Positions 41,784 through 44,342 of a stretch of 64,000 nt of DNA are shown here, piece by piece. Position 1 is the first letter of the stretch. Every line of letters starts with the position of its first letter. The notes under the pieces were generated by a model. That model searched no databases. It saw nothing but the letters and a program-made list of their open reading frames with translations, and had not been told where the DNA came from. The translations under genes and the position numbers were made by a program. This stretch comes from Escherichia coli (GTDB lineage Bacteria > Pseudomonadota > Gammaproteobacteria > Enterobacterales > Enterobacteriaceae). Location of the stretch: NCBI RefSeq assembly GCF_001677475.2, contig NZ_CP015229.1; one strand, given 5' to 3'.

Positions 41784-44342
41784 ATGAAAACGAACAGGAA
41801 AAGAGTTGTTATTACCGGGCTGGGGATTTTGTCCTCACTGGCTGAAAATATTCAGGATTTCCGGGAAGCATTATTAAATAAAAAAAATGGCGTTGCGGAT
41901 AGCGAACGCTTTGCAAAATGGTTTGAAAATGCGCGTGCGGCAGAAGTGTTGCATGACATTGAATACTCCGATCTGAACGAAGATGTTATTGATTCACTGG
42001 ATAACGCAGCGCTCTGGGCCTACAAAGTGGGTAAAGATGCGCTGAGTCAGGCCGGTCTGATGGATAGCCGTGACACCCTCAAAGAAACAGGCATGATCGT
42101 CGGTGTTTCGTCCGCGGGAACAGAGGCATTTTTGCCGCTTTTCGAACAGCGCATGGAAGATTTCTCGCTGCGTAAAGCACTTTTTTCCGGCGCGTTTTCA
42201 TCCTGTTGTTCCAGCGTTTCGACGCTGCTGGGCTTACAGGGTGGGGTTGAACTGGTCGCGACTGCGTGTACTGCCAGCCCGAACGCCGTGGGGATGGCCT
42301 TTGACTACATCCAGAATGGTAAAAGCAAAACCATGCTGGCAGTGGGCACTGAGCCCATCTATCTGCCGACCTTTGCCGGATTCTACGCACTGAATGTCAT
42401 GCATCCAGACACCTGTACGCCGTTCTCGGGTCAGTCCGGTATGTCGATTGGTGAAGGCGCTGGCGCTATCGTGCTGGAAGAGTATGAGCACGCCGTAGCA
42501 CGCGGGGCGACCATTTATGGTGAGATCCTCTCTTACGCCACTTCCTGCGATGCTTTCCATGAAACCGGGCCAGATCCGCGTGCCAGCGGAGCGGTGCAGG
42601 TCATGAACAAGGCAATGGCAAATGCGGGTGTAACCCCAGAGCAAATCGATTACGTCAACGCGCACGGTACAGGTACCGAAGCCAATGACCGTATCGAAAC
42701 GCTGGCAATGAAAAAGGTCTTCGCTAACCACGATAAACTGCTGGTGAGCTCCACCAAATCTTACTTTGGCCACAACATTGGCGCAGCGGGGATTGTGGAA
42801 CTGATTGCCTGTCTGGCAACACTGCCGGACAACCGCGTACTGCCGACGCTGAATTTCAGCCAGGCACGCCCGAATTGCGATCTGGACTATGTGCCGAATG
42901 AATTTCGCGATCGCAAAGTAAACATCTTCATGAAGAATAACTATGCCTTCGGCGGCAACAATTGCTGCATGATCCTGAGCATGGAGCCCGCGTCCATTCC
43001 TGTCAGTACTTATGATTCGAAGCGTGTGGCTATCTCGGGCGTCGGTGCAGTATCCGCAATTGGCCACACGCTCAACCAGGTTCTGGAAAACATCTGGGCG
43101 CAGGACCACCACGTTGAACTGGGTAGCGTAACCTTCCCGGACGATACGCTGGAAGAAGCCAAAGAGCTGCTGGCGGTGCTGGATGAATCAAACCAGTTTG
43201 CCGAGCTGTTTGATGAAGAGTACAGCTTCAGCGACGCTACGCTTCCGGAAACGGAAAGCAACTTCAAAACGTTCCAGGTTTCCGGGCTGGAGCCGCGTAA
43301 ACACCTACGTCGTTTTGACCCGCGTAAAGCGACCCGTGGCGGCACGTTTGCCCTGATCGCACTCACCGAAGCGCTGGAACAGGCGAAGCGTAAAATCAAA
43401 CGCGATGGCGATGAGCTGGGCATGATCATGGGGATGTCTCGCGGCCCGCAGGAAACCACCTACAAATATCTACAAAGCCTGAAACCCGATCCACGCAAAG
43501 TACGTACGTCGGAATTTCCTGGCTCGCTGATGAATGCGATCCCAACGTTCTGCGGGATCTCTGAAGGGATCAAAGGGTATACCACTACGCTTGCGACAGG
43601 GGAAAACTCGGCGCTGGGTGCTCTGACCTACGGTTATGAAATCGTCCGGCAGAACCTGCAACCGCAGGTATTGGTTGGCGGCGCGGATGAGTACTTCCCG
43701 TCTATGTCGCTGTATATGGATGCGGTGACGCAAAAGATCCACATGACGGCTGAGGCGAGCGACTATCAGATTTACGGTAAAGATCCGCAGGGCTATGTTC
43801 CGGGCGAAGGTGCCTGCATGCTGCTGTTGGAAGATCCACAGTTGGCTGCGGCGCGTGGCGCTGAGGTTCTCGCGGAAGTGGTGGGCTACGGCAAGTCATG
43901 CAGCAATACCTACTTCGACGCCTCATTGTTGGAAGAAAAATCCGCGTCGATGGCGTTGGCCATTGAACGCGCCCTTACGCATGCGGGCATCTCTGCTGGC
44001 GATATTGATTTGGTTTGTGGTACCAGCAACGGTAGCGATGACCATTCTCGTATCGAAATTGACGCGATCTATAACACCTTCGCCGCGCAAAAACCGGCGG
44101 TGCCGGTAGTGAACTACAACGCTTGCTTTGGTTTTGTCGCCTCAGCCGCTGGTTTGCTTAACCTCGCCGTGATTACTGACTGCATCAAGAAGCAGGCAGT
44201 ACCTGCGATTCCAAATACGGTGGAATTCTTTGATGAGCGTGTGAATTTTGTACGCCAGTCGATGAAACTTGCGCTAAACCATGTCCTGCTTGTTGGCGCA
44301 ACGGAAGGCGGCAACTACTACGCGTTTGTTATTAAGGGATAA
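41784..44342 (+). CDS. Tandem beta-ketoacyl synthase didomain protein (KS plus second KS/CLF-like domain)
   Basis: 852-aa ORF; N-terminal KS with active-site Cys (ATACTASPNAVG) and His motifs (NAHGTGT, GHNIGAAG); second thiolase-fold domain from about residue 410. Confidence 0.85.
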   Translation: MKTNRKRVVITGLGILSSLAENIQDFREALLNKKNGVADSERFAKWFENARAAEVLHDIEYSDLNEDVIDSLDNAALWAYKVGKDALSQAGLMDSRDTLKETGMIVGVSSAGTEAFLPLFEQRMEDFSLRKALFSGAFSSCCSSVSTLLGLQGGVELVATACTASPNAVGMAFDYIQNGKSKTMLAVGTEPIYLPTFAGFYALNVMHPDTCTPFSGQSGMSIGEGAGAIVLEEYEHAVARGATIYGEILSYATSCDAFHETGPDPRASGAVQVMNKAMANAGVTPEQIDYVNAHGTGTEANDRIETLAMKKVFANHDKLLVSSTKSYFGHNIGAAGIVELIACLATLPDNRVLPTLNFSQARPNCDLDYVPNEFRDRKVNIFMKNNYAFGGNNCCMILSMEPASIPVSTYDSKRVAISGVGAVSAIGHTLNQVLENIWAQDHHVELGSVTFPDDTLEEAKELLAVLDESNQFAELFDEEYSFSDATLPETESNFKTFQVSGLEPRKHLRRFDPRKATRGGTFALIALTEALEQAKRKIKRDGDELGMIMGMSRGPQETTYKYLQSLKPDPRKVRTSEFPGSLMNAIPTFCGISEGIKGYTTTLATGENSALGALTYGYEIVRQNLQPQVLVGGADEYFPSMSLYMDAVTQKIHMTAEASDYQIYGKDPQGYVPGEGACMLLLEDPQLAAARGAEVLAEVVGYGKSCSNTYFDASLLEEKSASMALAIERALTHAGISAGDIDLVCGTSNGSDDHSRIEIDAIYNTFAAQKPAVPVVNYNACFGFVASAAGLLNLAVITDCIKKQAVPAIPNTVEFFDERVNFVRQSMKLALNHVLLVGATEGGNYYAFVIKG

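Follow-up and report, generated by a model that had tools for sequence, protein, structure and literature searches.

The 64,000-nucleotide stretch of the Escherichia coli chromosome analyzed here (RefSeq assembly GCF_001677475.2, contig NZ_CP015229.1), referred to below as the window, carries at positions 41784 to 44342 a gene whose 852-aa product had been outlined in a preliminary description as a fused tandem ketosynthase (KS-KS) didomain protein. We find that this product joins an apparently active FabF-type KS to a second, catalytically dead KS-like domain that resembles a chain length factor (CLF), and that the gene lies within an array of seventeen genes that probably specifies a dedicated fatty acid- or polyketide-like pathway. 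The gene and its parts are as follows.

41784..44342, plus strand: fused KS-CLF-like didomain gene, an ATG-to-TAA open reading frame (ORF) of 852 aa, named 'beta-ketoacyl-[acyl-carrier-protein] synthase family protein' in RefSeq
41784..42989, plus strand: N-terminal, predicted active KS domain (aa 1-402), FabF-like by NCBIfam and by PDB sequence match
42267-42269, 42663-42665, 42756-42758 and 42771-42773, plus strand: codons of the N-domain catalytic residues Cys162, His294, Lys325 and His330, respectively
43020..44339, plus strand: C-terminal, predicted catalytically dead thiolase-fold CLF-like domain (aa ~413-852), from Pfam and the FabF alignment
43602-43604, 44022-44024, 44118-44120 and 44133-44135, plus strand: codons of the equivalent C-domain residues Glu607, Thr747, Asn779 and Phe784, respectively

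The single 852-aa polypeptide of the preliminary description is borne out, with zero internal stops in the 852-codon ORF (41784-44342, plus strand) according to the ORF list and its translation, no frameshift, and recurrence in other genomes. Of 5426 complete E. coli genomes, 382 have the gene at 97.5-98.2% identity, among them that of O157:H7 strain EDL933, and 381 of the 382 annotate it as one full-length protein. Full-length homologues of 840-876 aa with 55-90% identity occur in Kosakonia, Enterobacter, Klebsiella, Serratia, Proteus, Providencia, Pantoea, Mixta and Rahnella, and further ones in the same range in Aeromonas, Acinetobacter and one Neisseria isolate. A scan of one genome per species yielded 41 loci in which the C-terminal half (C-half) is 43-85% identical; almost all are from Enterobacterales (e.g. 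Enterobacter, Klebsiella, Serratia, Proteus and Morganella), together with one from Acinetobacter.

Pfam finds the domains ketoacyl-synt and Ketoacyl-synt_C twice in the protein, once at residues 6-237 (E 1e-29) and 245-358 (E 1.5e-35) and again at residues 413-684 (E 1.7e-16) and 696-811 (E 3.5e-9). At the sequence level this double match is far above chance, and it places two KS units in one chain with a linker of ~12 residues between them, as had been described. The N-terminal half (N-half) carries the Cys/His/His motifs noted earlier (ATAC162TAS, NAH294GTGT and STK325SYFGH330N), and Cys162, His294, Lys325 and His330 are unchanged across a 24-member family alignment. It passed the cut-off of the NCBIfam FabF subfamily NF005589 (432.7 bits, cut-off 387), and its top PDB sequence match is chain B of 9s5h (9s5h_B; E 3.7e-78, 36% identity). 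Judged by these matches, the N-half is a FabF-type ketosynthase in which the Cys-His-(Lys)-His set needed for condensation is complete.

The C-half also aligns to FabF structures (E ~1e-20) and bears an acidic insertion of ~60 aa close to the start of the domain. The active-site Cys is not kept in it. Alignment with Streptococcus pneumoniae FabF places Glu607 at the position of the Cys, Thr747 at the first His, Asn779 at the Lys and Phe784 at the second His. Position 607 is Glu in 12 of the 24 family members, Val in five, Ile in three, Gln in two, and Ala and Met in one each, while the flanking G606 and N608 are invariant; the position is hypervariable between invariant neighbors, and its side chain is not selected. 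In classical Type II CLFs and in loading KSQ domains the Cys position is occupied by Gln, and a role in priming by malonyl-ACP (acyl carrier protein) decarboxylation is assigned to it. Because all of the catalytic residues are replaced and the Cys-equivalent varies freely, the C-domain reads as a non-catalytic CLF-like partner and not as another ketosynthase or a 'chain initiation factor' of the Gln type. The original 'KS-KS' label is thus right about two KS folds, but the second domain lacks the Cys and both His, and KS-CLF-like is the better name.

An AlphaFold2 model of the 852-aa protein, built from the 24-sequence alignment, has a predicted TM-score (pTM) of 0.89 and a mean predicted local distance difference test score (pLDDT) of 79.6. 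Foldseek against the PDB returned as top match 6RIW, the KS-CLF of PfaC (E 6e-43, TMq 0.73, 962 columns, 17% identity), which is the sole PDB match that spans both halves; the remaining top matches (TMq ~0.40-0.44) are single KS chains or the KS portion of larger synthases. Against AFDB50, Foldseek found dozens of two-KS proteins of 740-840 aa (TMq 0.8-0.87), all generically named, from Firmicutes, Actinobacteria, Deltaproteobacteria, Spirochaetes, Acidobacteria and myxobacteria. A search with the C-half of 1.84 billion cluster representatives gave 10,333 matches with E < 1e-3, and 109 of the top 150 have lengths of 700-900 aa. Within that set, 95 proteins clearly consist of two domains, and each of these domains was aligned to the N-half profile. 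The N-domain has C-H-K-H in 94 of the 95; no complete triad occurs in the C-domain in the tabulated patterns, and the Cys position is hypervariable. By sequence, an active KS and a dead KS in one ~800-aa chain form a broad, almost wholly uncharacterized class and are no E. coli oddity.

Several known systems share this arrangement in part. The PfaC KS-CLF (6RIW) is likewise a single chain, in which an active KS precedes a dead CLF-like thiolase fold and the two pack as a pseudo-heterodimer. However, it is 17% identical, continues into FabA-type dehydratase (DH) domains, and belongs to the Pfa megasynthase with its tandem ACPs and PfaD enoyl reductase (ER), whereas the E. coli didomain is free-standing, ends after the CLF-like domain, and is encoded in a Type II operon of discrete enzymes. 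With the PfaA model TIGR02813 the protein reaches 80.8 bits (cut-off 1010), and genes for Pfa partners are missing from the operon. The earlier statement that KS and CLF are normally separate polypeptides holds for characterized Type II polyketide synthases (PKSs), but fused forms occur widely in genomes, and that of PfaC has been solved.

The closest solved relative by sequence is 9s5h, an active FabF-like KS with a dead FabF-like partner that has assorted residues in place of the Cys and His; the C-half also matches its chain C (E 3.7e-17). Homologues of chain B all come from anammox Planctomycetes (Kuenenia, Jettenia, Brocadia and Scalindua), from which we take 9s5h to be the amxFabF2/amxFabFmut heterodimer of the ladderane cluster. 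Malonyl-ACP decarboxylation needs this pair, and in its dead subunit Val or Thr, not Gln, takes the place of the Cys (bioRxiv 10.64898/2026.05.19.726425). The anammox system differs in that the two proteins are encoded by separate genes in a cluster with radical-SAM and desaturase-like genes. A link of our operon to the ladderane cluster through a gene for a GcvT-like protein (described below) was rejected, the anammox cluster having no such gene, and for that reason the relationship is limited to the KS/dead-KS pair.

The Type II KS-alpha/KS-beta pairs of actinorhodin (1TQY), ishigamide (Iga11/12, 6KXD) and anthraquinone (AntDE, 6SMO) biosynthesis, detected as more distant sequence and fold relatives, also combine an active KS and an inactive partner with a discrete ACP, malonyl-CoA:ACP transacylase (MCAT) and ketoreductase (KR), and the presence of KR and DH without an ER resembles the highly reducing, polyene-forming Type II subclass. 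Unlike the fused E. coli protein with its variable Glu, classical pairs are separate polypeptides with a conserved Gln at the Cys position, and the E. coli operon lacks cyclase and aromatase. PigJ/RedX of prodigiosin biosynthesis (NF053555) is free-standing and has two KS folds, one of them active, and proteins from prodiginine producers (Serratia, Rugamonas) were among the AFDB50 fold matches. Nevertheless, our protein scores 98.2 bits against the NF053555 cut-off of 900, the pathway context is unrelated, and the order is reversed, with the active E. coli N-domain aligning to positions 498-727 of the 759-position PigJ profile. Finally, aryl polyene (APE) and flexirubin clusters combine discrete KS, CLF, KR, DH and ACP with LolA-like/ABC export of envelope lipids; the operon DH has weak ApeI-like Pfam matches and the KR matches the flexirubin FlxB model below its cut-off. 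Compared by Pfam families and gene names, the E. coli operon differs from APE clusters in having no aryl-starter genes such as those for ammonia lyase and CoA ligase, and no acyltransferases, glycosyltransferase or MMPL exporter, and, unlike them, it has a fused KS-CLF, a GcvT-like enzyme and a Ser-type KS.

The didomain gene belongs to a run of seventeen same-strand genes from 32980 to 53309, spaced by -17 to +88 nt. The other sixteen are listed here with the basis for each assignment.

32980-36792, plus strand: FHA-like TpsA exoprotein (1270 aa), from RefSeq and Pfam
36881-38500, plus strand: ShlB/FhaC-type TpsB, from RefSeq and Pfam, with a 15-nt gap to acpS
38516-38884, plus strand: AcpS-type phosphopantetheinyl transferase (PPTase), NCBIfam acpS TIGR00516 at 79.6 bits, above the cut-off of 59.8
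38898-39659, plus strand: FabG-like KR, FabG subfamily NF009466 at 227 bits, above the cut-off of 222
39663-40211, plus strand: FabZ-family DH, NCBIfam FabZ E 1.6e-20
40233..40514, plus strand: ACP of 93 aa, from its RefSeq name and a weak Pfam PP-binding match
40550..41710, plus strand: GcvT-like aminomethyltransferase-family protein of 386 aa, NCBIfam GcvT subfamily below cut-off and PDB 1WOO match
44347..45570, plus strand: KS3, a non-canonical KS-like protein of 407 aa, from Pfam KS_N and KS_C
45567..46520, plus strand: ORF317, 317 aa, with a predicted cryptic thiolase-superfamily fold
46531-47238, plus strand: ABC ATPase, from Pfam and RefSeq
47222-47878, plus strand: secreted 218-aa protein of unknown function (h218), from Pfam and RefSeq
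47879-49189, plus strand: MacB/LolCE-type permease, from Pfam and RefSeq
49198-49986, plus strand: LolA-like, TP_0789-like protein, from Pfam and RefSeq
49983-51371, plus strand: secreted 462-aa protein of unknown function (h462), possibly in the outer membrane, from Pfam and RefSeq
51385-52326, plus strand: FabD-like MCAT, NCBIfam fabD E 2e-52 and 178.5 bits, below the cut-off of 260.9
52323-53309, plus strand: membrane protein YcdU, the last gene of the array, from its RefSeq name, with a 4-nt overlap with the MCAT gene

A discrete ACP, with its phosphopantetheine-attachment Ser50 in a DSVD motif (codon 40380-40382), a FabD homologue and an AcpS homologue reside with the KS-CLF in the operon, as they do for Type II pairs. 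The earlier hint of an iterative elongation system fits this dedicated set of ACP, PPTase, MCAT, KR and DH. With tblastn, the order acpS-KR-DH-ACP-GcvT-KSCLF-KS3-ORF317-ABC-h218-permease-(LolA-h462)-MCAT was found to be kept in nearly all of the complete loci among the 41 species. RefSeq and Pfam assignments identify no enoyl reductase, thioesterase or acyltransferase among the E. coli-type operon genes, and no cyclase, aromatase or other polyketide-tailoring gene in the operon. PADLOC gave no anti-phage defense match for seven operon proteins.

The composition of the array varies at its edges. The genes for TpsA and TpsB stand directly before acpS in a group comprising E. coli, Enterobacter, Kosakonia, Mixta, Rahnella and Acinetobacter (~25 species), TpsA alone is retained in Proteus, Morganella and Providencia, and neither is found in the Serratia/Erwinia group. 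TpsA and TpsB may belong to the lipid system, and a functional coupling of this two-partner secretion pair to the operon, e.g. a lipid-modified or lipid-activated exoprotein, is possible. At the other end, YcdU is the conserved final gene in E. coli-type loci; because ycdU is conserved in that position and overlaps the MCAT stop by 4 nt, it looks like part of the lipid system rather than a core-genome gene. We also observed that the version in Serratia, Erwinia and Cedecea, which has no two-partner secretion genes, carries an extra 265-aa unknown protein and a FabL-like short-chain dehydrogenase/reductase (SDR) of the enoyl-reductase type, which scores 176.7 bits where the cut-off is 328. These extra genes are at L034:13711-14505 and L034:17274-18029 in the Edaphovirga locus and at equal positions in the Serratia, Erwinia and Cedecea loci.

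The preliminary description had further noted a KS-like gene following the didomain gene. It is there, with its true start at GTG 44347, 4 nt past the didomain stop, after an AAGGGA Shine-Dalgarno sequence (AAGGGA-N7-GTG) and in agreement with RefSeq; on the same two grounds a 429-aa ORF from ATG 44281 was rejected as the KS3 start. Matches of KS3 to Pfam KS_N and KS_C are weak but clear (E ~1e-11). Ser161 (44827-44829) stands at the Cys position, followed by His294, Lys324 and, for the second His, Tyr329 (45331-45333), and across 43 orthologues these are kept in 42 (Ser161), 43 (His294), 42 (Lys324) and 43 (Tyr329), the sole Cys at 161 being that of one distant metagenomic homologue. Cys159 was considered as a shifted nucleophile and rejected, since this position varies (Cys in 32, Ser in eight, other in three) whereas Ser161 is conserved. 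Cispentacin AmcF, the top NCBIfam match of KS3, was likewise rejected as an identity at 63 bits against a cut-off of 325. A Ser-His-Tyr site is unusual for a protein of the FabF/FabB fold. The description of an 'extra paralog' is accurate in that a KS-like gene is present, but with the Ser161/Tyr329 variant KS3 is probably not a second elongating KS, and it may have a transferase or release role.

ORF317, whose start overlaps the KS3 stop (ATGA), is named 'hypothetical' or, in some records, 'ATP-binding protein'. No sequence family was found for it by Pfam, NCBIfam, a PDB-sequence profile search or hhalign against the C-half family. Its AlphaFold2 model (pLDDT 77, pTM 0.83) nevertheless gave a consistent result in Foldseek against the PDB, where the top 50 matches were all thiolase-fold condensing enzymes or CLFs (E ~1e-9 to 1e-10, TM 0.5-0.57), FabH, OleA, DpsC, PqsBC and AntE among them. 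ORF317 is thus predicted from its model to be a cryptic fourth thiolase fold of the operon. The operon may therefore contain a split KS/partner pair besides the fused one.

The 386-aa GcvT-like protein is an unexpected member of the operon. It scores 136.7 bits with NF001567 (cut-off 300) and 101.4 with TIGR00528 (cut-off 235.85), and the T-protein structure 1WOO aligns along its length (E 2.5e-24). Asp94 (codon 40829-40831) is equivalent to the catalytic Asp of T-protein, and in 43 GcvT-like orthologues D94, E193 and R233 are each conserved to 95% or more. By sequence, then, this is a member of the GcvT family and not the housekeeping T-protein. A GcvT-like gene is present in all 41 Enterobacterales/Acinetobacter loci. 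We also sampled its adjacency at eight distant fused KS-CLF loci with 24-32% identity in the C-half, and found it adjacent or at most two genes away in six (L002, L003, L005, L050, L051 and L052), with no such neighbor found at the other two (L004 and L053). The six clusters otherwise differ, some having B12-radical-SAM enzymes and some coming from spore-forming Firmicutes. The pairing of a fused KS-CLF with a GcvT-like protein ranges over Enterobacterales, Firmicutes and uncultured lineages. One of the six clusters encodes a 1253-aa metagenomic protein (L052:8001-11762) that fuses a B12/radical-SAM domain to a KS + dead-KS didomain, and this is followed by a second didomain of 769 aa, an ACP, the GcvT-like gene, a KR and an MCAT. 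We found no literature tying the GcvT-like/aminomethyltransferase family to KS/CLF systems; one paper on an aminomethyltransferase and a PKS was set aside as unrelated, its neighbors being of the sarcosine-oxidase type. That the ACP-bound chain undergoes a folate-dependent one-carbon step is a reasonable hypothesis and no more.

Based on the didomain and its operon, we think it probable that the KS-CLF fusion acts as the condensing enzyme for chain elongation in a dedicated, iterative pathway resembling a Type II fatty acid synthase (FAS) or PKS. The operon PPTase would activate the operon ACP and the FabD homologue would load malonate, after which the KS domain would prime and then extend the ACP-bound chain. 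The dead domain would serve as obligatory dimer partner and contribute half of the acyl tunnel, and would thereby set the stoichiometry at 1:1 and probably determine chain length. KR and DH would process every beta-keto group, and because the E. coli-type operon has no enoyl reductase, the chain would be left unsaturated or hydroxylated unless the housekeeping FabI reduces it. More speculatively, the folate-type GcvT-like enzyme might add or remove a one-carbon unit, the Ser161 KS3 together with ORF317 might be a transfer or release enzyme, and the Lol/MacB-like ABC system and the LolA-like protein might carry the lipid to the cell envelope.

A number of observations weigh against this assignment. 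The N-half narrowly missed the cut-off of the FabF equivalog TIGR03150 (451.8 bits, cut-off 493.75), and the substrate of the N-domain could differ from plain malonyl- or acyl-ACP. The C-domain does not have the Gln that marks the Cys position of classical CLFs, which leaves a KSbeta-like role in priming unsupported, and the suggested chain-length role of the dead domain is drawn from analogy. That the two halves pack as an intramolecular KS/CLF-type dimer is a prediction from the model, in which the mean pLDDT is no higher than 79.6 and residues 195-220 and 555-581 are weak. The roles given to the GcvT-like protein, KS3 and ORF317 are guesses, and no biochemical, genetic or product report on the 852-aa protein was found in the literature.

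Among the alternatives, the one that deserves most attention is a redundant FabF paralogue that supplies ordinary saturated fatty acids to some specialized process, such as acylation of TpsA or of an envelope component, with FabI reducing the chain. The N-half score above the FabF-subfamily threshold, the operon without cyclase, aromatase or polyketide-tailoring genes, the FabL-like enoyl-reductase-type SDR of the Serratia/Erwinia version and the co-conservation of TpsA and TpsB would all suit it. However, the operon's own PPTase, ACP, MCAT, KR, DH, exporter, GcvT-like protein and two more thiolase-fold proteins exceed what ordinary supply would need, and the N-half falls under the FabF equivalog cut-off, so we regard this as a minority possibility. 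Less probable still, and in our view unlikely, is that the C-domain is a dedicated malonyl-ACP decarboxylase (a KSQ-like 'chain initiation factor') that makes an acetyl primer. Two of the 24 family members do have Gln at 607, but E. coli has Glu there and other members have Val, Ile, Ala or Met, with no side chain selected, and both of the His residues that assist decarboxylation are gone from the domain. In the anammox system, moreover, decarboxylation needs the pair, and the dead subunit has Val or Thr (bioRxiv 10.64898/2026.05.19.726425).

The remaining readings have very little in their favor. A true tandem KS-KS, in which both domains are active at different elongation steps, would explain why each half matches both KS Pfam domains, but the C-half is without the Cys, both His and the Lys, its Cys-equivalent is not conserved in the family, and the tabulated patterns of the 95 related two-domain proteins include no complete C-domain triad; we consider it highly improbable. 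The same low standing applies to membership in a Pfa-type polyunsaturated fatty acid (PUFA) synthase system, for which the PfaC didomain speaks as the only solved single-chain match across both domains, and against which stand 17% identity to 6RIW, 80.8 against 1010 bits with TIGR02813, and the lack of fused DH domains, tandem ACPs or a PfaD-type ER. Because the full-length gene recurs in E. coli genomes (at equal length and frame in 381 complete ones), in homologues, and in the 41 species loci as orthologues down to 43% identity, with ~800-aa fusions across phyla, we exclude a frameshift or assembly artefact, and the joining of two neighboring genes through a frameshift in sequencing or loss of a stop codon has next to no probability.

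Returning to the KS-CLF fusion as elongating enzyme, a broader and more tentative proposal can be made, which we hold to be possible though not likely. The KS-CLF and the GcvT-like protein would form the core of uncharacterized Type II FAS/PKS-like pathways, spread across phyla and in some cases accompanied by B12-radical-SAM enzymes, that move a one-carbon unit on or off an ACP-bound chain. In Enterobacterales this core would be joined by a transferase pair, the Ser-nucleophile KS3 and the cryptic thiolase, by a Lol-like exporter and often by a two-partner-secreted exoprotein, and from O-island 47 (OI-47) of enterohemorrhagic E. coli (EHEC) O157:H7 it would yield a new surface lipid or a lipid-modified adhesin.

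Databases already list the gene, generically named, and PfaC provides a solved precedent for its architecture, which also has many unstudied relatives. What is new here is the recognition of the fusion of a KS with a dead partner, the Ser-variant KS3, the predicted hidden fourth thiolase fold, and the folate-type partner, whose association with such fusions reaches far outside E. coli. Together they provide a model of an orphan pathway, set in an island of a major pathogen, that is concrete and can be tested. As a natural fusion from outside the PUFA megasynthases, the KS-CLF would also be a handy single-chain model for how a dead subunit sets chain length.

The window corresponds to the ycdT-ycdU region of a chromosome with an O-island 47 of the O157:H7 type. 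Upstream flanking genes are putP, efeUOB, phoH and pga, and downstream lie ycdU, tRNA-Ser(GGA), ghrA and ycdX. In the 2001 EDL933 genome paper, O-island 47 was reportedly labeled 'adhesin and polyketide or fatty-acid biosynthesis system'. Of this island, the reviews available to us discuss only the regulator GrvA, and a literature search on the topics OI-47, ycdU and GcvT/ketosynthase found no paper on the product of its lipid operon. Other features of the island in the window are listed below.

20327-21937: 536-aa ORF, the counterpart of an EAL-domain gene by comparison with strain N3
22535-23347: 270-aa ORF, the counterpart of a winged-helix regulator by comparison with strain N3, presumably GrvA
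24965-31589, minus strand: chaperone-usher fimbrial operon
53503-53590, minus strand: tRNA-Ser(GGA), directly after ycdU

In EDL933, ycdU is followed by an integrase gene and further island DNA. On the other side of the array, a stretch of low GC content (0.34-0.38) at positions 18000-24000 of the window, which includes the two ORFs above, marks the left part of the island.

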